NCBI RefSeq assembly: GCF_044704955.1
Contig: NC_091999.1
Span: forward strand, 63,984,001-64,048,000
DNA: 64,000 nucleotides
DNA from: Pristiophorus japonicus
Lineage: Eukaryota
Reading direction: 5' to 3'
Numbering within the stretch: position 1 is the stretch's first letter; each line of letters begins with the position of its first letter. A program made the translations under genes and the position numbers. Of this stretch, positions 40,243 through 63,915 are shown one piece after another. The notes beneath the pieces were generated by a model. That model had not been told where the DNA came from and searched no databases. It saw only the letters and a list, made by a program, of their open reading frames with translations.

Positions 40243-40524
40243 ATCGTGTGGTACATCATTCAACCGTTATCCTCATCCTGACGTCCGTGAAGAAATCACC
40301 AGCATCAAATATGCATCAGCTGTGTGTTCAATCCTCAAATTCCGTCCAAAGAGTGAGACCTTGAATTGGCTGAGCACTCATGCATCAGGGCTTCGTCACC
40401 TCTCCCATCTGTGAAGTGAACTGAAACTTCTCGGTGACCAGTCGGCTGACATTGCCCCTGGTCTCTACCTGCCAGGTCTCTCATCAAGGGTTCAGACAAA
40501 GCCGAAACTTTGCCAGATCTCACG
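40243..40524 (+). pseudogene. IgM heavy chain Cmu2 exon, decayed
   Basis: Spliced-frame reading STVILILTS/EEITSIKYASAVCSILKFRPKSETLNWL../GFVTSPICEVN*NFSVTSRLTLP../TCQVSHQGFRQSRNF matches elasmobranch Cmu2. Acceptor is ttgcac (AG>AC) and donor is ataa (GT>AT); contains a stop and deletions. Confidence 0.85.
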
Positions 40525-40829
40525 ATAATGGACACCAGCCCGTGGAGTCCCAAATGATTATGAGCGCGGATGTCAATCAGAGCTTTTATTCGAATTAGTA
40601 AAGAGCACAGAACATTTTTCATTGCCAAACATACAGATTGGACTTCCTTTCGTTGTTCGTCCTAATTTAAGTTCCCTCATGGTTCAGGATTCCATAACCT
40701 CGTCAAAGGTTTCCCTGAGCGGTGATGTCGGATAGTGAGTGAGGTGTCCTTAGTCTGAGGTTTATGCTGAGAAAGCTCTATTTCTAATATACAATCGTGC
40801 TGTTTATGGTTTCTTCCATTATATTATAA

Positions 40830-41250
40830 AAGAAAGAAATGCCATGGCCGAACTCCAGTTGTCCTAAAGTGCTTCACCACCAAGGAAGTTCTTCTTGAAT
40901 TGTGGTCACTGTTTTACTGTAGAAATCGCGTCGGCCAATGTTCAGACAGTAAGGTCCCACGAACACCAATGTGATAATGACCAGATAATCCTTTTGTTTA
41001 GTGCTGTTTGTTGAGTCGTAAGTATTGTCCAGGACAACTGGGAGAAATGCCCTGCTCATCTTCGAAATAACCCCAAGGGATATTTTCCATCCACTTCAAA
41101 GGGCAGATGGGGCCTTGGTTTCCTATCTCATCCGAAATATGGTACTCCCATAATGCAGCGCTCCCTCAGTATTGCACTGGGAGTAGCAGCTTACATTTTT
41201 TGTTCAAGAATGTGGAGTGCGACTTGAACCCACAATCTTCTGATTCGGGA
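40830..41250 (-). mobile_element. tRNA-derived SINE (same family as 25218)
   Basis: Reverse B-box gacttgaacccac and core gcagcgctccctcagtattgcactgg. Confidence 0.7.
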
Positions 41251-41293
41251 TTCCTCATGGTTCAGGATTTAATAACCTCGCAAGATGTTCGCC

Positions 41294-41323
41294 CTGACGA
41301 AGGGTCATCGACCTGAAACGTTA
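41294..41323 (+). ncRNA. Minimal type I hammerhead ribozyme-like motif at a Penelope-like element end
   Basis: CTGACGA-A-GGGTC-atc-GACCT-GAAA-CG-TTA: catalytic core boxes, stem II and a minimal palindromic stem III. Confidence 0.5.
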
Positions 41324-41529
41324 ACTATTTTGTCTCTCCACAGATGCTGCCTGACCCGCTGAGATTTCCAGTATTTTCTGTTTTTTTTCAGATTGCAGCA
41401 TCTGCAGTATTTTGCTCTTGCTTTCCCTCTGCTCTAATTTCACATAATATGTCTGCTGCCCTTGGTCTCAGGTTTATACTGAGATGGAGCGACAGGAGGT
41501 GTTGGAACCCTTTGCTGGTAACTGTCTCA

Positions 41530-42007
41530 GGACCCACTGCTAGAAAGGGCGCCTGCCCTATTTAGAACATTGTGTTCAGTTCCGTGCACCGCGCTGCAGG
41601 ATGGATATACCGGCTTTAGAACGGGTGCAATGCAAATTCACCCGAATCATACCGGGGCTAAAATGCGGACAGGTAGCACAGAATAGGCTTGTATTACTTT
41701 GCATTTTGAAGGTAAAGAGGTGATATAAGTTGTTTAACTTGATAAACGGAATTGTTAGGGTAGAGAGAAAATATTTCCTTGGTGCGGGATTGAGAACAAG
41801 GGGCAGAAACTCAAAATTCGAGCGAGCCCATTGAGGAGTGAGGTCAGGAAGGATTCTTTCACACAAATGATAATAGTAATCTGGAAATCTCTCCCCCAAC
41901 AGCGGTTGAGGCGGAGGATCAATTGAAAATGTCAAAACTGAGATTGATACATCTTTGTTAGGCAAGGGGTTACACAAATGAGGCGGATAGATGATATTGA
42001 GGTATAG
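41530..42007 (+). mobile_element. Old CR1 3' fragment (host of the Gypsy insertion; 3' UTR resumes at about 46419-46480)
   Basis: ttagaacattgtgttcagttc..; gaggtatag|..|gtcatccaagaactaattgaatgg. Confidence 0.7.
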
Positions 42008-45000
42008 TATTGTGTTCCTAACACAGATGAGACTTCAGAGGAAGGTTAAAGTAACAGTGACCTCAGTCTTTATTAAGACAATCCAGAGTGAGTAACAGAC
42101 CTTCGGGGCCAGCTTATATACAGTGCTCTCAAGGGATGCTGGGATCCCTTGGGTGTTCTGGGGATGCGCTCCCTGGTGGCGGAACATGGGAGTGCATGCT
42201 TTACAGATGCACAGCATCACTCCCCCTCAAAGTCAAAGTGAAAACTATTTACAAGGTGAGGCGGTCGGGAGCCTTTCTTTCCCTGGTGGACGGCCTTGAT
42301 ACAAATGTCGGTTCTGGTGTGTTGGCTGCACCCTCGCTGGGCTGGTGTGTTGTTGGCCCTGCAGAGCTGCTGGGTGAGCCTGGCCTTGCTGGGCTGTTGG
42401 GAGTGATGGGTTCGATTTCCTGGTCCGGCGTGGTGTTGTTGATCCTTTTGGTGTGTGTTATGCGCTCGAAAAAGGTGGTGTCTGTTGTGGGTTGTTCAGG
42501 GCAGTCTATGAACCACAGCCTCGTGTGGTCCAAGTGCTTCTGCAAATTTGTCCATTGGCTAGTTTGAGTACAAACATCCTACTCCCTTCTTTAGCTATCA
42601 CCCTGCCCGCGATCCACTTTGGACCATGTCCATAGTTTAGCACATACACAGGGTCATTCAGATCAATTTCCCCTTACACAGTGGCGCGACCATCGTTTAC
42701 ATTTTGTTGCTGCCGCCTGCTCTCTACCTGGTCATGCAGGTTGTGGAGAACCAGTGAGAGTCTGGTTTTAAGTGTCCTTTTCATGAATAGCTCAGCCGGG
42801 GGAACCCCTGTGAGTGAGTGGGGTCACGTGCGGTAGCTGAGCAGCACTCGGGACAGGCGGGTTTCGAATAAGCCTTCTGTGACTTGTTTGAGGCTCTGTT
42901 TGATTGTTTGTACTGCCCGCTCTGCCTGCTCATTGGAGGATGGTTCAAACGGGGCGGAGGTGACATGTTTGATCCCATTGCGGGTCATGAATTCTTTAAA
43001 TTTGGCACTGGTGAAACATGGCCCGTTGTCACTGACCAGTATGTCAGGCTGGCCGTGGGCGGCAAACATGGCCCTCAGGCTTTCAATGATGGCGGTGGCG
43101 GTGCTTCCCGACATTATTTCACATTCAATCCATTTTGAAAAATCATCCACCACCACCAGGAACATTATACCGAGAAACGGGCCCGCATAGTCGACATGGA
43201 TCCTCGATCATGGTCTGGAGGGCCAGGACTACAAATTTAGTGGTGCCTCTCTGGGCGTGTTGCTCAACTGAGCACGCATGCTGCATTGGCATACACAAGA
43301 CTTCAAGTCAGAGTCGATACCGGGCCACCACACGTGGGATCTGGCTATCGCTTTCATCATTACTTTACCCGGTGGTGTGCTTTGGAGATCCGAGATGAAC
43401 GTCTCCCTGCCCGTTTTGGGTAGCACTAGGTGGTTACTGCACAACAGGCAGTCTGCCTGAATGGGCAGCTTGTCCTTTCACCGCTGGAACGGCTTGATTA
43501 GCTTTTGCATTTCAACGGGTTTGCTGGCCCAGCTCGCATGCAGTACACAGTTTTTTACTCGGGACAAAAGGGGTTCTTGGCTGATCCAAGTCCGAATCTG
43601 GTGGTCCGTGATCGGTGATTTATCATTTTCAAACGCTTCCATGCCCATCAACAAGTCTGCGGGCTGCGCCACCGTCAATAAGTTTGCAGGCTGCGCCATT
43701 TACACCCCCATGGTGGGCAATGGTAGCCAACTGAGAACAACTGCACAGTTATCGGTGCCTGGCCTGTGGCGGATGGTATAGTTATACGCTGATAGTGCGA
43801 GTGCCCACCTTTGTATGCGGGATGAGACATTAGTATTTATCCCCTTGTTTTCAGTGAACAGGGATATGAGGGGCTTGTGATCGGTTTCTAGCTCAAATAT
43901 GAGGCCAAACAGGTACTGACGCATTTTCTTTACCCCGAACACACACGTTAATGCGTTTTTATCAATCATTCTGTAGGCCCTCTCGGCCTTAGACAAGCTC
44001 CTGGAGGCATAGGCGACAGGTTGCAACTTCACCACATTGTTAGCTTGTTGTAATACACACTCGACTCTGTACGACGACGCATCACATGCTAGCACAAGTC
44101 TTTTACATGGGTTATGCAATACAAGCAGCTTAATGGAGCATAAAATATTTCTGGCTTTCTCAAAAGCAATACTTGTTTTTTTCCCCATAACCAGTTCTCA
44201 CCTTTAGTCAATAACACATGTAGGGGCTCTAAGAGGATGCTTAACCCCGGTAGGAAGTAATCAAAATAGTTAAGGAGTCCCAGGTACGACCGAAGCTGAA
44301 GGACCTCCTCCAAGTTTTGTAGGTGCTCGATGGTGTCCCGACCTGTGACCAATATGTCGTCATGAAAAACCACCGTGCGTGGTACTGACTTGAGTAGGCT
44401 CTCCGTGTTTCTCTGGAAGATCGCTGCAGCCGACCGAGTTCCAAATGGGTATCTGTAGTAGATGAACAATCCTTTTGCGTGTTGATGCAGGTGAGGCCAT
44501 TCGAAGACTCCTCCAGCTCTTGCATCATGTAGGCCGAAGTCAGGTCGAGCTTGGCCAACATCTTGCCTCCTGCCAGCGTCACAAATACGTCATCTGCCTT
44601 AGGTAGTGGGTATTTGTCCTGTAAAGAGAAACGATTAATAGTTACTTTATAATCACCACAAATCCAGACCGTGCCATCACTTTTGAGTACTGGAACAATC
44701 GGGCTGGCCCACTCGCTGAATTCTACAGGGGAGATGATGCCCTCGCGTTGCAGCTGCCCAGCTCGATTTCCACTCTGTCCCTCATCATGTGCAGTACCGC
44801 TCGCGCCTTGTGGTGAAAGGGTCGTGCCTCTGGGACCAAGTGGCACCTTCACCCGGAAATGTTTCCAATGCCTGGCTCAAAAAGGAAGGACATTTTTGAA
44901 GAACCTGTGATAGCGCTCGGAAGTCATCCCAGTTCCGACGGATTTTGCCCAGTCAGCTCCTTCCAAGCAGTGTGGGGTCATCCCCCGGGACAAACCAGAG

Positions 45001-46413
45001 TGGCAGTTCATGCACCGTGCCCTCGTAGGTGACGTTGACCATGGCGCTGCCCATGACAGTGATAAGCTATTTGGTGCAAGTTATCTGTTTCGTGTGGATG
45101 GGGCTTAGGGATGGTCTGAGTGCCTTGTTGCACCACAGTCTCTGAAACATCTTTTTACTCATGGTAGATTGGCTAGTGCCAGTGTCCAGTTCAATGGCTA
45201 CGGGTAAGCAATTCTATTTTATATTTAGCATTATAGGTGGACATTTCATCAAAAATGTGTGAACCCAGTGTATTTCAGCATCTGCCTCCTCTCTCTGTGG
45301 CTCGAAATAGCTTTGATCCATCATGGACCGATCTTCCTCTGCCACGAGGTGGTTAGCACGTTTTGCCGAGCTGCAGCTCATCTGCAAGCTCGTTGGAGGA
45401 GCTCCATTGTTCCACAGCTCTTGCAACCATACCCTTTGAAGCGGCATGAATAGGCTGAATGGAAGCCTCCACAAAGCCGTCAAGGTGGAATTGCCTTGCA
45501 TTCATCCTTTGTTGCGGGCTCTGAGTCATCTGGTTCACCTGAGGCCTTCTGGCAGTTGCAGACTCGTGCGTTCTGCCCTGTACATTTCTGCTCGAAAACA
45601 CAGTTCCAGTTAATTTATGAACATTGCTAGCACTTGTGTACTGAGAGATTTGTTTGCTGTTTTCACTGGTGGACATAAACGCCTGTGCTATCGCAGTGGC
45701 CTTAATGAGGGTAGGTGTCTCTACAGTCAAAATTTTCATAGGATGGTCTCGTGTCCAATACCCAGTACAAAAAATCTGAGCATTTGCTCCAGGTAGCCAT
45801 TAAACTTACATTGTCCTGCAAGTTACCTTAGCTCAGCGACGCAGCTCGCCAATTCCTGACCTTCAGATCGCTGGCACATGTAGAACCGATAGCTCGCCAT
45901 CAACACGCTCTTCCTCAGGTTAAGATGCTCCCAAACCAGTGTACAGTGCTCCTCATATGACATATCTGTGGGTTTCACCAGAGCCAGAAGAAACTTCATG
46001 AGGCTGTAGGTCGGTGCCCCGCACACCATGAGGAGCACCGCTCTCCTTTTTCCAGTGCTTCCTTCTCCATCCAGCTCGTTGGCTACAAAGTACTGGTCTA
46101 GCCGTGCGACATCCACTTCCCAGTCCACACCATCCGAGAAATTCTCCAGGATGCCCACAGTTTGGTGCATCTTTGCGTTGGATTCGTATACTCGTCGCCA
46201 GTTATTGTGTTCCAAACACAGATGAGACTGCACACAGGGAGGTTAAATTAACAGTGACCTCAGTCTTTATTAAGACACTCCAGAATGATTAACAGGCCTT
46301 AAAGGCCGGCTTATATACAGTGCTCTCAAGGGATGCTGGGATCCCTTGGGACTTCAGGGGATGCGCTGCGAGGTGTCGGAACATGGGAATGCATGCTATA
46401 CAGATACACAACA
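42008..46413 (-). mobile_element. Ty3/Gypsy LTR retrotransposon, full structure but decayed
   Basis: ~210-bp LTRs at 42008-42216 and 46203-46413; PBS tggcgacgag beside the right LTR; PPT gagggggagtga beside the left LTR; gag-PR-RT-RNaseH-integrase order (LDLTSAY, ACDASS, TDHKPL, VSDNGPCF); degenerate 5-bp TSD tatag/tgcag. Confidence 0.93.
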
Positions 46414-47143
46414 TGCAGGTCATCCAAGAACTAATTGAATGGAGGAACAGGCTTGATGGACTGAAATTCATATTTCCTTCTGACACTCTTTAACAAGGCA
46501 TGATAAAGGCTCACTAATGATAGAAATGAAAAAACTACTTCACACCAATATTACAAATGATTCCCAAACACGAAAGACCCCTTGGAATGCCATTCTCCCG
46601 ACCTTTCTCTTGGATGGGGGCTGCAAGTGCTGCTTGTACATTTTCATCGCCCCAAAAATCACAAGACACCAGGATATTAACTGTATTTCGTTTCGATTCT
46701 AAAATCCTGAGTTGGATTTGTTATTCGTTTTGAGCCAGTGTAAGTTTCGTGTTGAGCTCTTGAACCTGGGGCAGAGTCATTTTTAGAACGGTGATAACGT
46801 TTGGGCACAAGGATCTTTAGTCGGGCGTAATGGAACAAGGGTTTTCGGGAGGAGCGCTATTCAGTTCGTAACACTATTGTGCATGAATGTATTTAATGTT
46901 TTACGCCGGGTATTTGCTTCACAGCACATTAAAGGTGGCTCTGGATGTAAACACACAGAAAATTTGAAAGATTCTCCCGGGCACGTTGCCAATCTGTTGT
47001 CCTTCCAATAACGATTTGTTTAAGCGACAGCGAGTGCTTGATATCTCAAAGGTGATTTATTCTTCTTGGGGGAATGAAGGCTGCATGCTGTTACCCTGAT
47101 TTTGAAGATGAAGCTTGGCTTGATTTATATTTCTGCTTCACAG

Positions 47144-47433
47144 AATATATCCAATGCAGAAATCACTCTTCTGCAACCGTCAGTAGAACAGGTCTTACTT
47201 GAGACATTATCCTGTGTCGTGTCTAATGGTCCTTATGGAATCAAAGTATCCAGGACCCGAGAAAAGGAAACTTGGAAATCAAAGATTGCCGTCGAAGTCG
47301 GCGAAGCTCCCAACAGTGTGATCAGCAACATAAACATCTCGAAACAAACCTGGCTAAGCGGTGTTGAGTTCTGCTCCGTGATGAGGCACCATTATTATAG
47401 CGACTATAAGAGATTCCATCCACAAGGAAAAGG
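47144..47433 (+). pseudogene. IgM heavy chain Cmu3 exon, decayed
   Basis: [55 protein letters not shown].., with RDSIHKEK in a shifted frame. Core Trp>Arg, second Cys>Ser, frameshift, and donor g|atgag (GT>AT). Confidence 0.9.
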
Positions 47434-47919
47434 ATGAGCGGAGAAATTGTAGCAACAAGTGAGACGCTCTGACTATTTCCGTGCATGTGCTAATTGGCTC
47501 TATTAAGTGTGTTAATGGATTGCTCTGATAATTGAAATGGTAATTCCACTAAATAATCCGACTGGACCCGAAATTATGCACTTAAGTGGAATCTGGATAA
47601 GTCCATGAGGGAAAAAGGGAAATATATTTTATTTGTGTTGGATAAAATTAGCTGGACGAGGCTCGTTTGGAGCATAAACAACGATAATGACCAGTTGGGA
47701 AGAAAATGCTATGTTATTTTCCAGTCCGACTCCTAAAGGACCCAGAGAGAAGGATTGCATTCCCCTCTGCTCCGTGCTGCAAAGCCTGACAGGCCACAGA
47801 GGGGAAAAAGGGAATCCTTTAAAAATCAGCGCAAAGCACATTTCTCTCACATCTAACCACCGGTTTCTTTGTCTCTGGAATTATCCAGTTTATTGACCTT
47901 TAACGTAATTGTTCTGCAG

Positions 47920-48311
47920 CTAAAGATCCGCGGGAACCGGCCGTGTCTGTCCTCCTGCCCTCGGCAGAAGAAGTCTCCGTTCAAACTTTCTTTACCTTCA
48001 ACTGCTTAATGAGAGGTTTCTCCCCCCAAGAGATCTTCGTCAAATGGACCATCAATGACAAGCCGATAGATTCCGGCAACTACAAGAACACCGAGGTGAT
48101 GGCGGAGAACGGCAGCAGCTCCTTCTTCATGTACAGCCTGCTATCCATTGCAGCCGAGGAGTGGGCCAGCGGCGCCTCTTACTCCTGTGTGATGAGACAT
48201 GAAGCGATCATCTTCAAGATCAACAACAAAACCGTTAATAAGTCCAGTGGTAAACTGACTTTTGTGAACATTTCATTAAAGCTGGTAGATACGGTGAATT
48301 ATTGTCAATGA
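47920..48311 (+). CDS. IGHM: IgM heavy chain Cmu4 exon plus secretory tailpiece (open frame)
   Basis: Acceptor ttctgcag; [61 protein letters not shown]; tail [19 protein letters not shown] with NIS sequon and penultimate Cys; internal donor G|GTAAA after 48249. Confidence 0.93.
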
Positions 48312-48339
48312 GAATCTCTCGATTGCATTTAAATTCTTA

Positions 48340-48345
48340 AATAAA
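48340..48345 (+). terminator. Polyadenylation signal of secretory mu
   Basis: AATAAA about 30 bp after the tailpiece stop. Confidence 0.65.
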
Positions 48346-48774
48346 ATACTTTAAAGGCCTCTTCTTCCAACTGCGAGTTAAATACATAGCCACTCAATTA
48401 ATATTGTTTTTCTACCCATTTTTGCGAACGCGGGAGGCTGCTAAACTGAAGCAGGCTATTTACAGGAGTCGGGTCCAAGGCTTGTACAGCCAAAGTTCCC
48501 AGCTCAGATAAACCACTGGTTGGAGACAGGGTGAAGCTCATTCATAACAAGTTTCCTCAATGTAACTTCAGCAAATTTCCTCCCACTGGAGGAATCTTTA
48601 ACGTTCCCATTTCCGACAAACTAATGCAGCCATTTAGATATTGGCGTCCCTGTTTCTCATGTTGTCCATCCCTTCAGAATTGAGGCCAGTTTTATTTTGA
48701 AGCTTCGCATCTTCTGGAAACTGAAAAGAGGGCCAGACACGTATATGAACTGCACCTCCCATTATCACACCAGA

Positions 48775-49022
48775 AAGAGAGGACAGGGAATGGTTAACCC
48801 ACTGTCCCTTCAACTCGCCAGCAGAGAGAGCGGAAAGGACAATTGTTAACCCAATGTACCTCACACTCAACCAGCAGAGATAGGGGAAGGACAATCGTTA
48901 ACCCAATGTACCTCACACTCAACCACCAGAGAGAGGGGAAAGGACAAGTGTTAATCCAATGTACCTCACACTCAACCACCAGAGGGAGGGGTAAGGACAA
49001 TTGTTAACCCAATGTACCTCAC
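48775..49022. repeat. 52-53-bp tandem repeat (about 4.5 units)
   Basis: gttaacccaatgtacctcacactcaacc..ggacaa at 48793, 48845, 48897, 48950 and 49003. Confidence 0.9.
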
Positions 49023-49489
49023 GCGCCCACCATCCGCCCCCCGTCCCTACCGCAGAGAGGGGAAGTCAACCAATCTCCATTCTGTGAACTCAGTCGCAAC
49101 CAGTAAAATGATAGATTCCAACTCGCTGTCAGAAAACGTTAAACTTGCCGAATATGCATCATATTGTATAATAAATGTTGTTCAACATTTTAGCTTTAAC
49201 TAGTATTTGGTTAAATCTATATCAGTTATTCGTAAACTAACTGATTGAATTTTAATAGTCAAAATGTAAACTAGTTATTCAATCCTCTGCAGGTTTTTCA
49301 TGGTTATCTCCAAGATAGGTCCGAGGCCCATCGTTGAATTGTTGAAATCCATCAACTGACATCGCATTGCGTCTCACACGGAAACACTTTTACATAGAGC
49401 GGGCGAGAATGCCTGTAAACGTGCGTGTGTGTCTTTATGTGAACGTGTGTTCGTTGTTGTGTGTAAATTTGCGTGGTTTTGTGTAAGTG

Positions 49490-50080
49490 CACACTTCCAT
49501 ACAAACACACTCAGACTTACAAATAAACAAACAATCTTCATACCAACACAGAATAATATAGGTATCCAGAATATAATGCACACTGTTATTGTCACACTCG
49601 GTTACTGGTACTCTCTAAAACTTTGAGTAAACATACACAGTCTTACACAAAGTACACAAACACACGCATTAACACACAGATTTACACACGCATAACCACA
49701 CATATCAACACAAACACACATACACAAATCACACACACAGATACACACGCAGTTACACTCAAACTCACACAGTTACACATAAAAACACAAACATAGACCT
49801 CAACATACAAAAACGCTTACATATACACATAAGGTACATGCACATTGCTACACATAACACGCACACTTATATATGTAAATACACATATACAAAAACACAC
49901 AAAGACTTACATATAAACATACACACACTTACATAAACACTCGCACAATTATATATAACACACACAGTTACATATTAACATAAACATTAAAACACAAACA
50001 CAGGGAAAACGAAAACAAGAGATCATGATCCACACATATGCAAACAGTAAAGCGCACAAAACATATCAGGATATAAACAT
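49490..50080. repeat. CA-rich low-complexity tract
   Basis: Degenerate (CA)n/ACAT arrays. Confidence 0.8.
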
Positions 50081-50637: not shown

Positions 50638-50765
50638 ATTCCTCAGACCACATCTCGAGTGAAGACTATGAGGATGAGTGCGACAACATCTGGACAACCG
50701 CTTCCACATTCATCATCCTGTTCTTCCTGAGAATTTCCTACAGCGCTGCCGTCACTCTGATGAAA
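50638..50765 (+). CDS. IGHM: IgM membrane exon TM1
   Basis: Acceptor ccccgtag; DSSDHISSEDYEDECDNIWTTASTFIILFFLRISYSAAVTLMK (CART-like motif); donor is GC (AAA|GCGAG). Confidence 0.92.
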
Positions 50766-50904: not shown

Positions 50905-50913
50905 GTCAACTGA
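50905..50913 (+). CDS. IGHM: IgM membrane exon TM2 (coding part VN*)
   Basis: Acceptor ctcttttacag then GTC AAC TGA, 139 bp after TM1; equivalent to the canonical VK*. Confidence 0.7.
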   Translation, partial: VN

Positions 50914-51679
50914 ACGGTTGAATTTCGGATGCCGTGGATTTTCCTCTCTGTTTATTAACAACTCTGTGTCCTGAAAATAAATATGTCCATCGTGATTCTC
51001 AGAGTAAAATGCTTCAATTAATAGATCCGAATCTGTAGCTGAGAATATCATAACCGGGATTTCCATCTTTCTGTTTGAAATGTGTGAGATAATCGTGGCC
51101 ATAATGTAAATATATCTCAGAGTTTCACCGTTGTTTGAATATTTCTTGGGGAAAAAAGTCACTTTTCTAGTTCCTAATTCTCAATTATTCCCTTCCTTTT
51201 ATGTTGATCCCTTATTTTCTCTCCCAGATGCCTGTTACATTTGTACAGATAGCCGGCCAGCTCAGACCACCGGTGTTGTGGTCTCAATGTGCTGTTATAT
51301 TCACTTTGTGCTACATTTTTGAAAAACTTCTCTACAAATTGTTCTTTGCGAAATTGTTAATAAATCTGGAATGGCGATTGGACTAAGTTGGAAATGTTGT
51401 TGAATTCCTTTCTAGGAGGCTCATCCGCACCGTTGCAGATCCCATTACACTTTGTTTTATTTCCCTGACTGATATTTTTTAAACATCCTGTTTTGGTTTT
51501 GTTTCAATCCAAGTTCCTTCGGTTAAGGAGCCACTGTGCCACCCAGTGTCCCATCAGAATAAAGACACCTTTATCTCTGCCTTTGTAAGTCAAGTCCCAG
51601 AGTGCAATTGACAGCACAGCGACAACGCAGTACCTCTAACATTATGGTCTGTCACAGTAAATGTCAGGTTCTATTAAAG

Positions 51680-52971
51680 AGCAAGGGGAGAGGAAGAAGA
51701 ATGGAAGAGCTGTAGTGGTTGGGGCTTCAATAGTCAGGGAAGCAGACAGTCGGTTCTGCGGCCGCAGCTGTGAATCCAGGATGGTATGTTGCCTCACTAG
51801 TGCTAGGGTCAAGGATGTCACCGAACGGTTGCAGGGCTTTCTGGGTGGAGGAGGATGAACAGCCAGAGGTCCTGATCCGTATCGGGACAAACGTCATGGG
51901 TAGTAAGAGGGATGAGGTTCTGCAGGCAGAATTTAGGGAGCTAGGAGACAGATTAAAAAGCAAGACCTCAAAACTAGTAATCTCCAGATTAATCCAGTTG
52001 TCAAGAGCTAGTGAGTACGGAAATAGGAGAATAGAGCAGGTAGATGTGTGACTGATTGAAATAGTACAAGAGGGAGGGCTTTCGAATCCTGAAGCATTGG
52101 AACCGCTTCTGGTGGAGGTGTGACCTGTACAAGCCAGAACGGGTTTCACCTCAACAGAGCCGGACCAATATCCACGCGGGTTGGTCGGGTGGGGTTGCGG
52201 GGGTTGAGAGGGGTTGCTCGTGCTGTTGCGGAGGGTTTAGATTATCTTGGCTTGGGAATAGGAACAGGAGAATAGATTCTCTTTGAAGGGGAATTAATAA
52301 TGGAGCGCAGGGAAATGGCAGAGACGTTGAACAAATATTTTGTACCGGTATTCACGGTAGAAAACACCAAAAACATCCCAATAGTGGATAATCAAGGGGC
52401 TATAGGTAGCGAGGAACTTAATCCAATCACTATCATTAATGAAGTAGTATTAGGTAAAATAATGGGACTAAAGTTGGACAAGTCTCCTGGACCTGATGCA
52501 TTATATCTTAGGATCTTTAGAGAAGTGGCTGCAGAGATAGTAGATGCATTTGTTGTAATCTACCAAAATTCCCTGGATTCTGGGGTGGTCCCATCAGATT
52601 GGAAAACCACAAATGTAATGCGACTATTTCAAAAATCAGGCAGCTACAAATCAGGAAACTAGACCAGTTAGCCAAATATCTGTCATTGTGAAAATGCTGG
52701 AGTCCATTATTAAGGAAGCAGTAGCGGGACATTTGGAAAGCAGGATCCAATCAAGAAGAGTCTGCATGGTTTTATGAAAGGGAAATCACGTTTGAAAAAT
52801 TTGCTGGAGTGGGTAACGAGCAGGGTGGATAAAGGGTAATCATTAGATGTGTTGTATTTGGATTTCCAGAAGGCATTCGATAATGTACCACATAAGTGGT
52901 TACTGCACAAATTAAAAGCTCACCTGGTTGTGTAATATATTACCATTGATTGAAGATTGACTAACTAACAG
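51680..52971 (+). mobile_element. Degenerate CR1 (ORF1 esterase fragment plus internally deleted ORF2), 3'-truncated
   Basis: VVVGASIVR, IGTN, KSPGPD and YLDFQKAFD motifs. Confidence 0.88.
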
Positions 52972-53881: not shown

Positions 53882-53986
53882 AGTCCCAGAAACATACAAC
53901 TATTTTCTCTTTCATGTCCTCCCTCATTCGGTTGAGTGATTGCAAGACCACTGTTTTCAAGTTTGGAAAGTTACAGCTGTCTTTAG
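53882..53986 (+). pseudogene. Probable TCR alpha/delta-type transmembrane exon remnant
   Basis: Acceptor ttttccccag and donor G|GTGAA; reads ..FSFMSSLIRLSDCKTTVFKFGKLQLSL, with R-x4-K-x3-F spacing as in TCR alpha/delta TM and a KL-x3-(TTA at the stop position)-G|gt ending as in TRDC exon 3. Confidence 0.4.
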
Positions 53987-54447
53987 GTGAAATTTAAAGA
54001 AAGTAATGGGCCGGAGCCTTCCACGAGCAGAACAACACGATAAATATCCAGCTTTAAAGGAATACACGGGAGGAAATCACCCACAGAGGCAGAATATAGG
54101 AACTAGAACCTTTCCTATTAACTAAGCGACAAGCTGACCTTGGAGCTCCTGGAGCTGATCTGAACATCCATCCATCAAGTCAAGGGAAAACAGCTGATCA
54201 GAAGCAGAAAGGACAGTTTAGAAGTCAGTTCATTCGATGGTGGTCGATTCACAGGTCGATTTTCGGACCGATTGAATAATGCAACTTGTTTTCTCGGCCG
54301 CTCCTGGAATCATTTGGCTGACAATTGGATCCGAGGTTAATTTGGTATATTCTCTGTGTGTCTGAGCGCCTGACAGCGCGCTGCACACTGTGGCTGCATC
54401 TGCCCGCGATTCCAACAGGCAGGAGCTCCGCCGAACTGGCCAATGGC

Positions 54448-54486
54448 AGTTTTTGTACGGTGGTGATGTTGCTTTCCATCTCTGCA
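54448..54486 (-). promoter_or_regulatory. 23-bp-spacer recombination signal sequence (degenerate heptamer)
   Basis: TGCAGAG + 23 nt + ACAAAAACT directly after the V coding end. Confidence 0.85.
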
Positions 54487-54792
54487 TGTCTCAGGGCGCT
54501 GTAATACACGCCAGCGTCAGTAGGGTGCAGCCCGGAGATGTTTAAGCTGATGAATTTATTCGTGGTCTGGAGCTCTGCAGAGAAACGGGTTTGAGCAAAA
54601 TCTGCATTATTCTCACCACCGTTCGAATATTGCCTCAGTGTAAACGTGGGCTGTGTGTCTGGGTGTTAGCAGTAGCAGAATAAATAATACAAGCTCCATG
54701 CAGTTTCATAATATAGCTTAAAGTCACCATTTCACCCTGTGCCTTAACTCCTGAGGACAGCTGGTGAGTGACAGAGTCTCCTTTACTCAGAT
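54487..54792 (-). pseudogene. TCR V (delta/alpha-type) pseudogene, inverted relative to IgM
   Basis: Acceptor ccag; DLSKGDSVTHQ..GEMVTLSY / YETAWSLYYLFCYC*HPDTQPTF..ADFAQTRFSAELQTTNKFISLNISGLHPTDAGVYYSALR. Both Cys and the Trp are lost; contains a frameshift and a stop. Confidence 0.88.
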
Positions 54793-55289
54793 CTGGGCAA
54801 CTTGTTCAAACAGGAAAAGGTCAGACCGGGCTGTGATTACAATTCAGTTTCAACCCATATTAGAAATGATAGAAAAGATTAAATAGGTTTTGTCCACAAT
54901 TATCTTTCAGAAATGTCCCACGCAACCCCGCTGCTGAGTCATCGCATTGTCGCTGCTGCTTTGTAAAAGGGGTTTGTATATTTAAAGACACCCATTCTAA
55001 TACCCACTCTCAATATTCGTGTGTCGTGTCTCAGGATGCTCTCGGTTGTGCTGTGAAACCGTAGGTGGTGAGCTGGCAGCCAGTGTACGGCAACACTCCG
55101 AGCTGGGCTACACTCAGTGTACTTATACGGGAATGGTTTGGTTTTAAACACCAGTGCTGGGAATGAAACCTTTACCTGGTTATTGTGACTGAAATTTGCA
55201 GGATTGTTGATGGCTTTGTTTTATAGGGGGAGGGGCGCTTTTTAGCAATTTCCCGTTCGTCTATTTAATGTTCACGGGAGCAGAATGCG

Positions 55290-55640
55290 GGGAAATTGTA
55301 CAAAAGGGCAGGGTGATTGGAGGCTGGGTTCAAACGCAGAGGATGAATGTTGGGCGGCTATAAATCGCCAGGGTGTGGTGCAGGGCAGATTCACGGCCCC
55401 CGAAGTGAGGTGTTGGACGGCATCAAACCACCAGACTGAGGTGTTGGGCGTGTTCATAGCGCTAGGGTAGGTGTAACGTGAACCAATAGCCCCAGGGTGA
55501 GATGTATGGCGTGTTTAGACCCCCAGGGTGAGATGTAGGGCGATTTCAGTGCCCTAAGGGTGAGGTGTGGAGCTGGTGCAGAGCACCAGTATGAGGTGTA
55601 GGGCGGGTTCAGACCCCTAAGGCGAGGTGTAGGCCGGGTT
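55290..55640. repeat. Degenerate ~33-bp G-rich tandem repeat
   Basis: gaggtgtagggcgggttcagacccc..gggt units. Confidence 0.65.
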
Positions 55641-56727
55641 CTTTTTAATAAAAGATCAACATCAGCATGGCCGGAAAAAATGTCCTTACAACTTTCACTC
55701 ATATTAGAAATGGATATGGCGCAGAAATCAAATAAAGTACAGGCGGATTCGATTTATTGTTCGCCCCGTTAATATCGATCTCTACCATTGGTATAATTAA
55801 TGGCATCAGAAATCAGATCTCAGTGTGTGTCATTGATTCACATTTTAATGTCGTGTTTTCGATTCGCCACACTCTTCTAGTCACGTGTTCTGTCCACAGT
55901 TTACTAACCAAAGCCATCGTTCGATATGACTGATGTCTTTTTTTGATGATTGTGCCCGAAGTACCGACCCAACCCATTTGCGGATTTCACACATTAATCT
56001 TCAATTCATTCCACAATTTGCACAACTTTTGGAATAAAGCAGAATTTAACACAATGCCCGGGATCTGATCCACAATATGTATATTGTGACCTGACACCAT
56101 CTACAGATATTCAGTGAATTGTTCAGATCTCGGGGGAAAGTGTGGGATATTCACTGACCTGATGCAGTTCCTCCTTATGGGAAGCTGGGTTAGAGCAGTC
56201 CTGAAATAATATGCCGAGCAGCAGCAAAGGTTTTACTAAAGACAGAGAGAAGGAAGTTCGTAGCATTATGGATAAAGAGTGGAGACAGGGGAAGAGAAGG
56301 TACATACAGGCACGGAAGTAGCATCGAAAGACAAAGGGTGAATTGTGGCACCACAGACATGATTTCTGAAGTTAATTTTATTATAACTACGAGTTGAAAT
56401 CACAAACTAATATTAATCCGCCGTTTTACTCTCGCTGCATAGAGATAAATCACGAAGGAATTATTTTCAAGTGGCAGGCGTTTGTGTTAATACTTTCCTC
56501 TTCAACCATCATTTCAGGAACTGCCTGTTCCACTGTGCCGTGGTGTCTCCATGGTAACATTAAATAATAGTAATAGTCATCATATTCATCGTCACCATCA
56601 TCTCAAACAAAATAACCATCATCGCCACCATTACACATTTAACCAATAATAACATCTGGGTTACAGCAGTGAAGGGGAGAATGGATTTTCACTGAGAAAG
56701 AAATACTTATTAAGAAGTGATATAATA

Positions 56728-58150
56728 AGAACATAAGAACATAAGAAATGGGTACAGGATTAGGCCATGCAGTCCCTCGAGCCTGCTCTGCCATGCAATA
56801 GATCAATGCTGATCTGATCATGAACTCAACTCCACTTCCCTGCCTGCTTCCCATAACCCATCATCCTCTTTATCATTTAAGTAACTATTTATGTCTTAAA
56901 TTTATTTTATGTCCCAGCATCCACAGTTCCCTGCGGCAGCGAATTTCACAGATTTTCAACACTCTGAGAGAAGAAATGACTCCTCATCTCTGTTTTAAAT
57001 GCGCAGCCCCTTATTCTAAGATCATGCCCTCTAGTTCTACTCCACCCCATCAGTGGAAACATCTTCTCTGCATCCACGTTGCCAAGCCCTCTCATACTCT
57101 TATACGTTTCGATAAGATCACCGCTCATACTTCTGCATTCCAATGAGTAGAGGCCCAATCTACTCAACGTTTCCTCAGAAGTCACCCACTCATCCCCGGA
57201 ATCAACTTAGTGAAGCTTCTCTGAACTGCCTACAAGCAAGTATATCTTTTCGTAAATATGGAAACCAAAACTGCACACAATATGTGGCCTCACCAATATT
57301 CTGTACAGCTGTAGCAAGACATCCCGGCTTTTATACTCCATCCCCTTTGCAATAAAGGCCAAGATTCCATGGGCCCTCCTGATCACTTGGTGTACCTGCA
57401 TACGATCGTTTTGTTTTTCATGCACCAGCACCTTCTCTTCCCGCTGAACTGTGGCACTTTGCAATCTTTCTCCATTTACATAAGAACTTGCTCGTTGGTT
57501 TGTTCTGCAAAAGCGCTTGACCTCCCACTTCCCAGCATTATACTCCATCTGCCAAATTCTTACCCATTCACTTAGCCTGTCTATGTCCTTTCGCAGTTTT
57601 TTGTGCCCTCCTCACACATTGCTTTTCCTCTCATCTATTTATCATCAGCAAAATTGAATACTTTACTCTCAGCCCCTTCCTCCTAGTTGTTAATATAGAT
57701 TGTACATATCTGAGGTCCCAGCACTGATGCATGCGGCGCCGCACTGGTTGCCAACCAGAGAATGAACAATTTTTCCCGACTCTCTGTTTTCTGTTAGTAA
57801 GCCAATCCTCTATCCATGCTAATATATTACCCCAACCCCTTGAACTATTATCTTGTTCTGTAATCTTTTATGTCAAATGGCTTCCGGAAATCCAAATACA
57901 TCACATCTTCTGTTGCCCATTTATCCACCCTGTTCGTTAGATCCTCAAAGAATTCCAGCAAATTTGTCAAAAATGATTTTGCTTCATAAATCCATGGTGA
58001 CTCTGCTTGACCGAATTTTGCTTTTGCAAATGTCCTGTTACTGCTTCTTTCATAATGGACTCCAACATTTTCCCAACCACAGATGTTAGGCTAATTGGTC
58101 TATAGTTTTCTGCTTTTTGGCTGACTCCTTTTTTAAACAGGGATTTTACA
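56728..58150 (-). mobile_element. CR1 LINE 3' fragment, (cataagaa)n-tail subfamily
   Basis: Tail aagaacataagaacataagaa; reverse RT ORFs (NYRPISLTSVVGKML). Confidence 0.9.
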
Positions 58151-58402
58151 TAATGATGAGGAGCAGTGCGAGATGGTTCCACATTACATTCCCTGAGTCT
58201 GAAGCTATGCGGTCCTGGAAACCCTCTGTCGGAACAGAAATAGAGTACCATGCCACACTGCCCTGCTGATCCAAACAATGCTAAACAGGGATCTGCAGCA
58301 GCAATCTCTCCAATAAAACAGGGCATGCAAGCAGTTTAAGGGCGCCCATGAACAGACTAACTATTTGTACTACGTCGCCCTTCTGCGCATATGCACATTA
58401 AT

Positions 58403-58562
58403 GTGTCTGTGTGTGTGTATGTGCGTGTGTGTGTGTGTGTGCGTGTGTGTGTGTGTGTGTGTCTGTGTATGTGTGGCTGAGTGCATGTCTATATGTCTAT
58501 GGATGTCTATGTGTGTGTGTGAGTACGGCTGTCTGTGCATGTGTGTATGTGTATATGTATGT
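58403..58562. repeat. (GT)n microsatellite
   Basis: Direct observation. Confidence 0.95.
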
Positions 58563-58980
58563 CTATTTGTCCGTGTTGCCAATGCACTATGCCATAGTTG
58601 TATGATCGGCAGGAGTGAGCTCTCTGATCACTTTACAAAGATCATGATCTCTATGTACAGTGGTGGCTGTTTAGAGAGGTAAAAATGGGCGGGAAGAAGA
58701 AATCCCAGCCAAGCTGATAAGATCCCCGTCCTATTTGAGTTTTCCACTTCAGGCCTGGTAAAGGCAGTGATGACAGTATCTTTTTCCTGGAGTTTAGACT
58801 GTAACAATTGAAGTGAAACTCTTCCTGTCTCTGATTATTGTCCTGAACAGAGTTTGTGATATTTTGAACCATTCTATAAGATTCTCCAGTTCTCATACAA
58901 CTTCTCGTTTCCATCTACGGGTGCTTCTTCTCTACCTGTTTCTCTGTCTAACCTGCTGTGTGTCTGCTGTTTATTTTCAG

Positions 58981-59093
58981 GGATGACGAGCGGAGACTCT
59001 GTGTCCCAAGGAGTCGGGTCAGAGTTGGGTGCAGATTCAGCAATAAATTGCAGTTACTCTGTATTGGCTACAAGCTATGGCCTGTTCTGGTAT
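58981..59093 (+). pseudogene. TCR V (alpha/delta-type) pseudogene, 5' part (FR1 to WY)
   Basis: Acceptor ttattttcag; GMTSGDSVSQGVGSELGADSAINCSYSVLATSYGLFWY, cut by the CR1 tail. Confidence 0.85.
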
Positions 59094-59190
59094 AGAAACA
59101 TAGAAACATAGAAAATAGGTGCAAGAGCAGGCCATTCAGCACTTCTAGCCTGCACCGCCATTCAATGGGTTCATGGCTGAACATGAAACT

Positions 59191-62170
59191 TCAGTACCCC
59201 TTTCCTGCTTTCACGCCATACTCCTTGATCCCCCGAGTAGTAAGGACTTCATCTAACTCCCTTTTGAATATATTTAGCGAATAGGCCTCAACTACTTTCT
59301 ATTGTAGAGAATTCCACAGGTTCACCACACTCTGTATGAAGAAGTTTCTCCTCATCTCGGTCCTAAATGGCTTACCCCTTATCCTTAGACTGTGATCCCT
59401 GGTTCTGGAATTCCCAAACATTGGGAACATTCTTCCTGCATCCAACCTATCCAAACCCGTCAGAATTTTAAACGTTTCTATGAGGTCCCCTCTCACTCTT
59501 CTGAACTCCAGTGAATACAAGCCCAGTTGATCCAGTCTTTCTTGATAGGTCAGTCTCACCTTCCCGGGAATCAGTCTGGTGAGTCTTCGCTGCACTCCCT
59601 CAATAGCAAGAATGTCCTTCCTCAAGTTAGGAGACCAAAACTGTACACAATACTCCAGGTGTGGCCTCACCAAGGCCCTGTAAACTGTAGCAACACCTCC
59701 CTACCACTGTACTCAAATCCCCTCGCTATGAAGGCCAACATGCCATTTGCTTTCTTAACCGCCTGCTGTACCTGCATGCCAACCTTCAATGACTGATGTT
59801 CAATGACATCCAGGTCTCGTTGCACCTTCCCTTTTCTTAATCTGTCACCATTCAGATAATAGTCTGTCTCTCTGTTTTTACCACCAAAGTAGATAACCTC
59901 GCATTTATCCACATTCTACTTCATCTGCCACGCATTTGCGCACTCACCTAACCTATCCAAGTCACTCTGCAGCCTAATAGCATCCTCCTCGCAGCTCACA
60001 CTGCCACCCAACTTAGTGTCATCCGCAAATTTGGAGATACTACATTTAATCCCCTCGTCTAAATCATTAATGTACAATGTAAACAGCTGGGGCCCCAGCA
60101 CAGAACCCTGCGGTACCCCACCAGTCACTGCCTGCCATTCCGAAAAGTACCCATTTACTCCTACTCTTTGCTTCCTGTCTGACAACCAGTTCTCAATCCA
60201 CGTCAGCACACAACCCCCAATCCCATGTGCTTTAATTTGCACATTAATCTCCTGTGTGGGACCTTGTCGAAAGCCTTCTGAAAGTCCAAATATACCACAT
60301 CAACTGGTACTCCTTTGTCCACTTTACTGGAAACATCCTCAAAAAATTCCAGAAGATTTGTCAAGCATGATCTCTCTTTGACAAATCCATGCTGACTTGG
60401 ACCCATCATGTCACCATTTTCCAAATGCGCTGCTATGACATCCTTAATAATTGATTCCATCAAATTACCCACTACTGAGGTCAGGCTGACCGGTCTATAA
60501 TTCCCTGCTTTCTCTCTCCCTCCTTTTATAAAAAGTGGGGTTACATTGGCTACCCTCCACTCGATAGGAACTGATCCAGATTCAATGGAATGTTGGAAAA
60601 TGACTGTCAATGCATCCGCTATTTCCAAGGCCACCTCCTTAAGTACTCTGGGATGCAGTCCATCAGGCCCTGGGGATTTATTGGCCTTCAATCCCATCAA
60701 TTTCCCCAACACAATTTCCCGACTAATAAAGATTTCCCTCAGTTCCTCCTCCTTACTAGACTCTCTGACCCCTTTTATATACGGAAGGTTGTTTGTGTCC
60801 TCCTTTGTGAATACTGAATCAAAGTACTTGTTCAATTGGTCTGCCATTTCTTTGTTCCCCGTTATGACTTCCCCTGATTCTGACTGCAGGGGACCTACGT
60901 TTGTCTTTACTAAACTTTTTCTCTTTACATACCTATATAAACTTTTGCAATCCGCCTTAATGTTCCCTGCAAGTTTCTTCTCGTACTCCATTTTCCCTGC
61001 CCTAATCAAACCCTTTGTCCTCCTCTGCTGAGGTCTAAATTTATCCCAGTCCCCAGGTTCGCTGCTATTTCTGGCCAATTTGTATGCCATTTCTTTGGCT
61101 TTAATACTATCCCTGATTTCCCTTGATAGCCACGGTTGAGTCACCTTCCCTTTTTTATTTTTACGCCAGACAGGAATGTACAATTGTTGTAATTCATCCA
61201 TGCGGTCTCTAAATGTCTGCCATTGCACATCCACAGTCAACCCCTGAAGTATCATTAGCCAATCTATCTTACCCAATGCACGCCTCATACCTTCAAAGTT
61301 ACCCTTCTTTACGTTCTGGACCATGGTCTCTGAATTAACTGTTTCATTCTCCATCCTAATGCAGAATTCCACCATGTTATGGTCACTCTTCCCCAAGGGG
61401 CCTCGCACAATGAGATTGCTAATTAATCCTCTCTCATTACACAACACCCAGTCTAAGATGGCCTCCCCGCTAGTTGGTTCCTCGACATATTGGTCTAGAA
61501 AACCATCCCTTATGCACTCCAGGAAATCCTCCTCCACCGTATTGCTTCCAGTTTGGTTAGCCCAATCTATGTGCATATTAAAGTCACCCATTATAACTGC
61601 AGCACCTTCATAGCATGCACTCCTAATTTCCTGTTTGATGCCCTCCCCAACATCACTACTACTGTTTGGAGGTCTGTACACAACTCCCACTAACTTTTAT
61701 TGCCCTTTAGTGTTCTGCAGCTCTACCCATATAGATTCCACATCATCTAAGCTAATGTCTTTCCTAACTATTGCATTAATCTCCTCTTTAAACAGCAATG
61801 CTACCCCACCTCTTTTTCCTTTTATTCTATCCTTCCTGAATGTTGAATACCCCTGGATGTTGAGTTCCCAGCCCTGATCATCCTGGAGCCACGTCTCCGT
61901 AATCCCAATCACATCATATTTGTTAACATCTATTTGCACAGTTAATTCATCCAGCTTATTGCGGATACTCCTTGCATTAAGACACAAAGCCTTCAGGCTT
62001 GCTTTTTTAACACCCTTTGTCCTTTTAGAATTTTGCTGTAAAGTTGCCCTTTTTGTTCTTTGCCTTGGGTTTCTCTGCCCTCCACTTTTCCTCATCTCTT
62101 TTCTGTCTTTTGCTTTTGCCTCATTTTTGTCTCCCTCTGTGACCCTGCATAGGTTCCCATCCCCCTGCAA
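59191..62170 (-). pseudogene. CR1 ORF2 (AP endonuclease + reverse transcriptase) with a few stops and frameshifts
   Basis: Consecutive ORFs 61697-62170, 60203-61690, 59916-60242, 59667-59912 and 59299-59673; motifs NARS, ITETW, GDFN, SDH, YLDFQKAFD, FADD. Confidence 0.95.
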
Positions 62171-62172
62171 TA

Positions 62173-63120
62173 TTATTTTAACTCCTCCCCAACAGCACTA
62201 GCAAACACTCCCCCTTGGACATTGGTTCCGGTCCTGCCCAGATGCAGACCGTCCGGTTTGTACTGGTCCCACCTCCCCCAGAACCGGTTCCAATGCCCCA
62301 GGAATTTGAATCCCTCCCTGCTGCACCACTGCTCAAGCCATGTATTCATCTGCTCTACCCTGCGATTCCTACTCTGACTAGCACGTGGCACTGGTAGAAA
62401 TCCCGAGATTACTACTTTTGAGGTCCTACTTTTTAATTTAGCTCCTAGCTCCTTAAAATCTTTTCGTAGGACCTCATCCCTTTTTTTACCTATGTCGTTG
62501 GTACCAATGTGCACAGCGACAACTGGCTGTTCTCCCTCCCACTTCAGAATGTCCTGCACCCGCTCCGAGACATCCTTGACCATTGCACCAGGGAGGCAAC
62601 ATACCATCCTGGAGTCTCGGTTGCGGCCGCAGAAACGCCTATCTATTCCCCTCACCATCGAATCCCCTATCACTATCGCGCTCCCAATCATTTTCCTGCC
62701 TTCCTGTGCAGCAGAGCCAGCTACGGTGTCATGAACTTGACTGCTGCTGCCCTTCCCTGGTGAGTCATCCCCCCGAACAGTACTCAAAGCAGTGTATCTG
62801 TTTTGCAGGGGGATGACCACAGGGGACCCCTGCACTATCTTTCTTGCACTGCTCTTCCTGCTGGTCTTCCATTCCCTATCTGGCTGTGGACACTTCTCCT
62901 GCGGTAAGACCAACTCACTACACGTGATACTCACGTCATTCTCAGCATCGTGGATGCTCCAGAGTGAATCCACCCTCAGCTCCAATTCCACAACGCGGAT
63001 CGTCAAGAGCTCGAGGCGGATACACTTCCCACACACGTAGCGCCCAGAGACACCGGAAGTGTCCCCGAGTTCCCACATGGTACAGGAGGAGCATATCACG
63101 TGACCGAGCTCTCCTGCCAT
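62173..63120 (-). CDS. CR1 ORF1p: zinc finger, coiled coil and SGNH esterase domain
   Basis: Open 315 aa; CSSC..CGKC; heptad LELLTIRVVELELRVDSL; GDS, G, GTND and DGLH blocks. Confidence 0.93.
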   Translation of the reverse strand: MAGELGHVICSSCTMWELGDTSGVSGRYVCGKCIRLELLTIRVVELELRVDSLWSIHDAENDVSITCSELVLPQEKCPQPDREWKTSRKSSARKIVQGSPVVIPLQNRYTALSTVRGDDSPGKGSSSQVHDTVAGSAAQEGRKMIGSAIVIGDSMVRGIDRRFCGRNRDSRMVCCLPGAMVKDVSERVQDILKWEGEQPVVAVHIGTNDIGKKRDEVLRKDFKELGAKLKSRTSKVVISGFLPVPRASQSRNRRVEQMNTWLEQWCSREGFKFLGHWNRFWGRWDQYKPDGLHLGRTGTNVQGGVFASAVGEELK

Positions 63121-63305
63121 GTCTTAACCTTAGATACCCTTAAATTGGTAATAACAATGCTAAAGTTCACTTACTGATATAAAAAAGAAAAGAAAATTTA
63201 CTCACCAATCACTAGCCAATCACTTACCCCATTGGCTGTGACTTCACTTTTTGATTCCTTTCTACTTCTATTTTGCTTTCTCTCCCGCTGTAGCTGCAGC
63301 GGTAC

Positions 63306-63714
63306 GCTGGCTCTCGCTCTCCCGCTGGGCCTTTTATAGGTCGCTCCCCTCTCACCAACTGCCGCTGGCTCTCGATCTCCCGCTGGGCTTTTGACAGGTC
63401 GCTCCCCTCTCACCAACTGCTGTTGGCTCTCGCTCTCCCGCTGGGCCTTTTATTGGTCGCTCCGCTCTCACCAACTGCCGCTGGCTCTCGCTCTCCCGCT
63501 GGGCCTTTGACAGGTCGCTCCCCTCTCACCAACTGCTGTTGGCTCTCGCTCTCCCGCTGGGCCTTTTATAGGTCGCTCCCCTCTCACCAACTGCCGCTGG
63601 CTCTCGCTCTCCCGCTGGGCCTTTGATAGGTCGCTCCCCTCTCACCAACTGCCGCTGGCTCTCGATCTCCCGCTGGGCTTTTGACAGGTCGCTCCCCTCT
63701 CACCAACTGCCGCT
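63306..63714 (-). repeat. Seven 58-bp tandem monomers at the CR1 5' end
   Basis: Units start at 63306, 63364, 63422, 63480, 63538, 63596 and 63654; the element sense strand carries cctataaaagg or variants. Confidence 0.93.
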
Positions 63715-63876
63715 CTGCAGATTCCCCACCAAGCCCCCCAGTATCTGATCGGAGCCGATAGTTAAGGCATTTGAACACTTCAGCAGGAATCTCAACCGGA
63801 CACAAAGAACTTTTCACTTATCCATGAAAGGCATTAAGATCAGAAACAGTGCCGTGTATTACTATGTGCGATGACC
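63715..63876 (+). pseudogene. TCR V pseudogene, 3' part (continuation of 58981-59093)
   Basis: LQIPHQAPQYLIGADS* / FEHFSRNLNRTQRTFHLSMKGIKIRNSAVYYYVR*; Cys>Tyr, stop and frameshift. Confidence 0.85.
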
Positions 63877-63915
63877 CATAGTGAATAAGAATCCCTCGGG
63901 CCTCATGCATAAACA
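63877..63915 (+). promoter_or_regulatory. 23-bp-spacer RSS (degenerate)
   Basis: CATAGTG + 23 nt + GCATAAACA. Confidence 0.8.

Follow-up and report, generated by a model that had tools for sequence, protein, structure and literature searches.

Mammalian orphon V genes of immunoglobulins (Ig) and T-cell receptors (TCR) were copied away from their diversity, joining and constant (D-J-C) segments by segmental duplication and then decayed. TAILV and the trans-rearranging heavy-chain V (VH) are Ig-like variable (V) segments that join D-J-C of TCR delta; Ig heavy-chain (IgH) V segments, TAILV, are said to have been described in the nurse shark TCR delta locus by Deiss et al. in 2019 and Ott et al. 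in 2021. In elasmobranchs, according to a recent report (Flajnik et al. 2025, PMC12227049), an antigen receptor complex (AgRC) unites IgH miniclusters and TCR alpha/delta on one chromosome, and the IgH clusters have some V exons of TCR alpha/delta type between them. For the great white shark, its Table S1 has models named 'IgM pseudo?' and 'IgM (missing V)' that stand among TCRad V models and 'TCRadV pseudo' ones over 8.9-17 Mb. Two further papers confirm Ig-TCR delta chimeras for sharks (PMC5931798) and give V-D-D-J-C as the plan of the shark IgM minicluster (PMC6795676). Considered here is a stretch of 64,000 nucleotides from Pristiophorus japonicus (the window; C23:63,984,001-64,048,000, where C23 denotes its chromosome, NC_091999.1, in a genome of 5.9 Gb). 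At window positions 40243..63915, constant exons of an IgM gene stand beside TCR alpha/delta-type V genes.

Very probably, these exons and V genes form part of a dead block that likely left the TCR alpha/delta V array long ago and whose multiplication among the IgM miniclusters of the chromosome is likely due to segmental duplication. Directly observed are its lesions and copy number, a collinearity over ~124 kb and the same order and orientation of parts in the TCR array. The adjacency is confirmed, and every part is a pseudogene. The parts listed by the original prediction, made from the sequence of the window (Cmu2, Cmu3, Cmu4/sec, TM1, TM2 and the V genes V1 and V2), were recovered by tblastn and alignment where it had placed them.

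The constant exons follow each other on the + strand in the order Cmu2-Cmu3-Cmu4/secretory tail (sec)-TM1-TM2 (TM, transmembrane), and all of them align to the intact IgM cluster at C23:46.48 Mb, which served as the same-genome reference. Cmu2 (40243..40524) and Cmu3 (47144..47433), located by tblastn with this IgM and by DNA alignment, are pseudo-exons. In the DNA alignment, Cmu2 has lost both splice sites (acceptor and donor) and bears several deletions with a frameshift and one stop, while Cmu3 has an 8-bp deletion that shifts the frame, no core Trp, a further frameshift at the 3' side and a donor changed from GT to AT. Cmu4 with the secretory tail (47920..48311) has an open frame with a C1-set domain and keeps the acceptor and the poly(A) signal. 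It is 75% identical to the Triakis IgM heavy chain and 70% to the nurse shark mu chain, which, together with the alignment of the other exons to the intact IgM, bears out the predicted IgM class. TM1 (50638..50765), 86% identical to TM1 of the intact IgM, has a donor changed from GT to GC and is thus the third exon with a mutated donor, after Cmu2 and Cmu3; TM2 (50905..50913), identified by DNA alignment, is followed by an IgM 3'-flank element (51447..51683, +). The only match to Cmu1 in the 264 kb read around the window (80 kb upstream, the window itself and 120 kb downstream) is a fragment in another broken IgM gene 61 kb upstream. Among the 15 copies of the unit, the variant codons of Cmu4 comprise 17 synonymous (of 84 sites) and 52 nonsynonymous ones (of 306 sites), a pN/pS of 0.79, and among 12 open-frame IgM exons taken for comparison the numbers are 43 and 50 (pN/pS 0.27); between copies, Cmu4/sec changes near-neutrally. 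By sequence, the constant exons are of the mu class, but the VH-D-JH and the four intact C exons of a functional shark IgM minicluster are missing.

V1, a TCR alpha/delta V pseudogene (54487..54947, - strand), lies 3.5 kb from TM2 and was recognised from PDB hits, a tree and a 14-copy alignment; its closest PDB matches are human TRDV1/TRAV chains. Its leader remnant (54947-54904) has a stop and no donor, and its V exon (54792-54487) carries a 1-bp deletion with the resulting frameshift and a TAA stop and, in the window copy, retains neither Cys nor the Trp. V2 is on the + strand and in two parts, of which the 3' part (63715..63915, including its recombination signal sequence, RSS) has a stop, a frameshift and no second Cys; the 5' part lies at 58981..59093. 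V2 is spread over 5 kb because a long interspersed element (LINE) of 4.6 kb with endonuclease and reverse transcriptase (59091..63714, - strand; Pfam RVT_1, Exo_endo_phos_2) splits it. V3, a further TCR V pseudogene, lies just beyond the window end at 64,963-65,253. Every V of the unit has stops or frameshifts, plus lost cysteines. A DNA tree of 33 rows groups each of V1, V2 and V3 with V genes of the TCR array under starred support and apart from VH; the rows were motif-found array V genes from the stretches fetched and three VH, with no IgL, NARTCR or TAILV references. Tree and PDB hits agree with the TCR alpha/delta type that had been predicted, and by sequence class V1, V2 and V3 are of this family; as judged from sequence, V1 and V2 lack the open frame with both Cys and the Trp and the 23-RSS with CAC of a functional member.

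RAG requires CAC as the first three bases of the heptamer. The predicted 23-RSS were upheld as 23-spacer RSS-like signals at both V genes, though not as canonical ones: the signal of V1 (54448..54486, -) has the heptamer TGCAGAG and the nonamer ACAAAAACT, that of V2 (63877-63915, +) has the heptamer CATAGTG, and an RSS scan demanding a CAC start gave no signal at V1 or V2 of the window. The CAC heptamer is retained by V3 and by V2 in three older copies of the block.

The DNA of V1 matches at 91-100% at 15 of 40 scored places, and the 3' part of V2 matches at 15 of 19, the two sets of 15 being identical. Thirteen of these places are on C23 (23 to 66 Mb) and two on unplaced contigs. The 'independent duplicate' of the original prediction proved right. 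One of the contigs, C3770, holds a block copy 100% identical to the window in all three exons searched, which may be the window locus assembled twice. Besides the window, 13 copies were read: nine are 97.7-98.4% identical over 10 kb, three ~94%, and one 86-92% in two parts. The junction between TM2 and V1 is crossed in one alignment by 12 of the 13 (93.7-98.4%); in the remaining copy (66.24-66.26 Mb), its two sides are ~12 kb apart, in two separately fetched stretches. The DNA from -21.6 to +102 kb of the window (~124 kb) is collinear with C23:22.99-23.11 Mb, mostly at 91-97%. The block is a segmental duplication: it exceeds 1 kb, has more than 90% identity, occupies several loci and extends beyond mobile elements. 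In no copy do the ~60 kb upstream of Cmu4 hold, on the same strand, any of the 150 scored VH matches. Ordinary IgM clusters show no TCR V behind TM2 in eight of eight read, ~10-17 kb from Cmu4, and the IgM-V1 junction is therefore specific to certain lineages.

All 14 V1 copies read share the 1-bp deletion and the TAA and lack the CAC heptamer, and in 13 of them the second Cys is gone. Since frameshift, stop and broken heptamer are common to all, decay preceded spread, and V1 was already dead in the ancestor of the 14 copies; the word 'fossil' in the original prediction is right. In the three older copies read at C23 23.03, 50.28 and 66.27 Mb, V2 is uninterrupted, the LINE being absent, and in all three it already has a stop and a frameshift; the LINE thus arrived between two copying rounds. 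The intron between Cmu2 and Cmu3 holds an insertion resembling a long terminal repeat (LTR) retroelement (42008..46414), the edges of which are direct repeats of ~210 bp, 88% identical (self-blast, 42008-42217 vs 46203-46414). This insertion is common to the older copies read, and the LINE occurs in younger copies only; the two may serve as markers for ordering the duplications.

The TCR alpha/delta locus proper lies at 9.7-11.7 Mb of the same contig, 52 Mb from the window, which disposes of the suggestion that the window might be the orthologous locus. Its J, D and C delta segments are at C23:9.72-9.74 Mb, and a dense V array occupies 9.77-11.68 Mb; ~370 kb of this 2-Mb region were read. The C exon shows 48% identity to a TCR chain of the whale shark, in the C region, and is termed delta on account of an adjoining D segment that has 12- and 23-spacer signals; it has one genome match (1 of 19 candidates), at C23:9.72 Mb, 54 Mb from the window. 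An older copy of the block (50.26-50.29 Mb) aligns to C23:11,464,554-11,428,994 in the same order and orientation with 66-77% identity. The aligned parts are the Cmu3-4 intron, Cmu4, TM1-TM2, the 3' flank, a V1-family gene with 1.7 kb flanks, intergenic DNA, a V fragment, and V2-like and V3-like genes. IgM 3' remnants are found within the working TCR V array at C23 9.977-9.980, 10.155-10.158 and 11.456-11.465 Mb. The IgM 3'-flank piece (300 bp) is present at five array places; the four that were read each follow a V1-family gene at a distance of 1-3 kb. Of 101 candidate matches to this piece 40 were scored, and every one of these is on C23 or on a contig also bearing IgM exons. The window further holds, unlisted in the original prediction, the 5' piece of a V gene from a third TCR alpha/delta family (56461..56728, -), which is 75-76% identical in DNA to V genes at C23:11.516 and 9.996 Mb.

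The following course of events may be proposed. An IgM gene, or its 3' half, would once have stood within the ancestral V array beside a V1-family gene, and the IgM array would have received a copy of a stretch comprising this end of the IgM gene and four or more V genes. Having lost its link to D, J and C, the exported stretch would have decayed before spreading. Unequal exchange driven by repeats or IgM homology would then have spread the block, first as the 88-95% copies and later as the LINE-bearing 98% copies, and this spread may have gone along with neighbouring broken IgM clusters by segmental duplication. The direction is inferred, in trees that are not rooted, from the presence of several V families in array order and of intact relatives in the array.

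Several observations weigh against this course. The Cmu4/sec frame is still open in 12 of 15 copies and has stops in three. The 11.46-Mb remnant as the sole sister of the unit's Cmu4+TM was rejected by the approximately unbiased (AU) test (p 4e-5), and a clade of the unit with both array remnants was merely not rejected (AU p 0.10). The free tree, from which 6 near-identical unit copies and rows without one of the two exons were left out, keeps the unit's Cmu4+TM as its own deep branch with a long stem among 17 other IgM rows. V1 has its tree sister in the 11.489-Mb V (95/86) and not in the collinear V at 11.440 Mb, and no Cmu2 or Cmu3 match was obtained at the 11.46-Mb remnant, while the window retains both. 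The direction from TCR array to IgM array rests on gene content, as the trees have no outgroup. Because of the separate Cmu4+TM branch and the V1 sister at 11.489 Mb, the block at 11.43-11.46 Mb is best read as a sibling of the source and not as its direct parent; given the share of the TCR region that was read, a closer source may be unseen.

The same data bear on a chimeric dead duplicate, in which only the TCR V stretch would have left the array. Unequal crossover or gene conversion via an array IgM remnant would have linked it with an ordinary IgM gene, the Cmu coming from the IgM array. Such an origin would account for the failed pairing with the 11.46-Mb remnant, for the presence of Cmu2-Cmu3 and for the identity of the Cmu4 region to intact IgM, which is 82-88% for the unit vs 81-84% for the array remnants. 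However, none of the 17 other IgM rows sampled encloses the unit's Cmu, its clade with both remnants is not rejected, and the array homology continues past TM2 and the 3'-flank element into the flank of V1. This origin is improbable. The block might also be an ancient elasmobranch module of an IgM end plus TCR V, moved repeatedly between arrays, which the five array places of the 3'-flank element and the 20 copies of a second IgM+V junction would suit; the great white 'IgM pseudo + TCRad V' runs would then be orthologous, and some exported V (e.g., at 52.39 Mb) would still recombine. If this long shot were true, exported V on IgM, or long-range joins to TCR delta, would be the mirror image of IgHV-TCR delta chimeras.

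It is very unlikely that the copies are retained for a side role, be it a short Cmu4/secretory transcript, a supply of gene-conversion donors or a decoy RSS. The wide spread of the block and the mostly open Cmu4/sec frame, with its acceptor and poly(A) signal, would suit such a role, but the variant codons are near the neutral ratio, three copies have stops, and there is no leader or V exon to feed Cmu4/sec.

It is hardly credible that the block works, or worked until recently, as a mixed Ig/TCR unit whose TCR V joins nearby D-J and splices to Cmu or trans-rearranges. TCR V genes with 23-spacer signals do lie within kilobases of mu exons, V3 and V2 of three older copies keep CAC, and Ig-TCR chimeras are common in sharks, as PMC12227049 and PMC5931798 have it. 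Yet the V genes carry the lesions described above, Cmu2 and Cmu3 are frameshifted, with splice sites lost, V1 runs on the other strand, and downstream of the C exons V2 and V3 face away. Neither VH nor JH gave a match, at the protein or DNA level, in the 264 kb around the window, and no D or J segments, of Ig or TCR, appeared there in scans by motif and RSS. TCR delta C is likewise absent there; C alpha was not searched for. No NAR-like V-D-J was seen near the window, in searches where no named NARTCR sequence was compared. The mixed unit of the original prediction, as a working one or a possible substrate of cis mixing, is not supported, given that no VH, JH, D or J was found in these 264 kb and that the only C delta found is 54 Mb away. 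By prediction, the block yields no receptor and does not contribute productively to V(D)J recombination; it is best read as a fossil and not as a recombination substrate, and the window is predicted to encode nothing functional.

Finally, an assembly misjoin between 50.9 and 54.4 kb has a negligible chance, because, even though the interval contains LINE fragments, no single public contig spans it and the C3770 copy may be the same locus twice, 12 of the 13 other copies, 2-7% diverged from the window, align across it in one piece, and the order recurs in the TCR array at ~70% identity. The stretch is contained in four DNA sequencing runs from a single sample and in no listed RNA run, which carries no information on expression. 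Contigs of these DNA runs reach every one of the 30 bins between 49.5 and 56.5 kb with no piece spanning the junction, and contiguity is neither supported nor weakened by them.

Within 40243..63915, Ig and TCR exons are adjacent and not interleaved, and the interleaving that had been predicted becomes visible once the flanks are included. As annotation of the flanks confirms, a second broken IgM gene, identified by its match to the intact one, occupies -21.6 to -9.8 kb of the window, TCR V remnants lie at -7.2 kb and at V3, and a further TCR V pseudogene lies beyond the window end at 74,591-74,870. The upstream broken IgM forms a second IgM+TCR V junction at about -7.7 to -6.8 kb of the window, where a V1-family remnant stands 3.5 kb behind TM1, on the opposite strand like V1; 20 of its 43 matches are at 94-100%. 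A C exon that is heavy-chain-like but not of the mu class (36% to Cmu4), probably of IgW or IgNAR, was noticed at C23:64,658,183-64,658,545 (-), at 0.6 Mb from the window.

Other TCR alpha/delta V orphons, of other families and mostly broken, are found at C23 19.62, 37.27, 51.20, 52.40 and 65.41 Mb. Some sit behind other IgM remnants, which points to several separate exports from the TCR array. One TCR alpha/delta-like V in the IgM array, at C23:52,391,030-52,391,287 (-), has an open frame, both Cys and CACAGTG-23-ACAAAAACC; it is 43 Mb from C delta, and its near copy at 51.21 Mb has no YYC motif. Within the TCR array, a divergent V followed by a 12-spacer RSS was seen at C23:9,973,484 (-), possibly of the NARTCR type. 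In the reference IgM cluster, at C23:46,484,280-46,484,600, the V continues as a D-like stretch, behind which a 22-spacer RSS follows, so that the cluster looks germline VD-joined; nine VH copies are 98-100% identical to its V.

The scattered TCR V between IgM clusters may be explained, at least here, as passengers of a duplicated pseudogene block and not as extra receptor loci. IgM constant genes would once have been inside the TCR alpha/delta V array, with DNA moving between the arrays, and such movement bears on the possible origin of Ig/TCR hybrids such as NARTCR and TAILV. The Cmu4 exon of the window gave 150 scored matches of 740 candidates, ~140 of them at >=55% identity and roughly 105 of the latter on C23 between 5 and 67 Mb. 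As 15 of the ~140 belong to the dead block, cluster counts based on C exons overstate the number of working IgM genes.

Compared with the TCR alpha/delta locus proper, which has D, J and C in cis, the unit of the window showed no D, J or C delta within the 264 kb read. With the shark IgM minicluster it shares the order of C exons and intron homology to the intact cluster, but it differs in having broken exons and no VH, JH or Cmu1. The likeness to TAILV is that IgH and TCR alpha/delta parts are physically mixed, the TCR array here also having IgM 3' remnants; the V genes of the window are, however, of the TCR type and apart from the VH clade in a tree without a named TAILV sequence, and not IgHV-like as TAILV are, and the Ig part is constant-region only, with everything broken and far from D-J-C. 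Like mammalian orphon V genes, the V genes of the window were likely copied away from D-J-C by duplication and then decayed; in contrast to them, they travel with IgM constant exons and stay on the chromosome among IgM miniclusters. The AgRC shows the same sharing of a chromosome by IgH miniclusters and TCR alpha/delta and the same TCR V between IgH clusters, but in the accessible part of PMC12227049 the gene models are listed without being traced to a repeated duplicon or a source block, whereas the Pristiophorus copies reach wider, lying at 23-66 Mb and as far as 55 Mb away from the TCR locus, and the block recurs 15 times. No description of a repeated IgM-TCR V duplicon was found in the literature searched, which lacked coverage of most subscription journals. 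The arrangement itself is already known in sharks; what is new is a likely route of Ig/TCR V mixing traceable to a duplicon.

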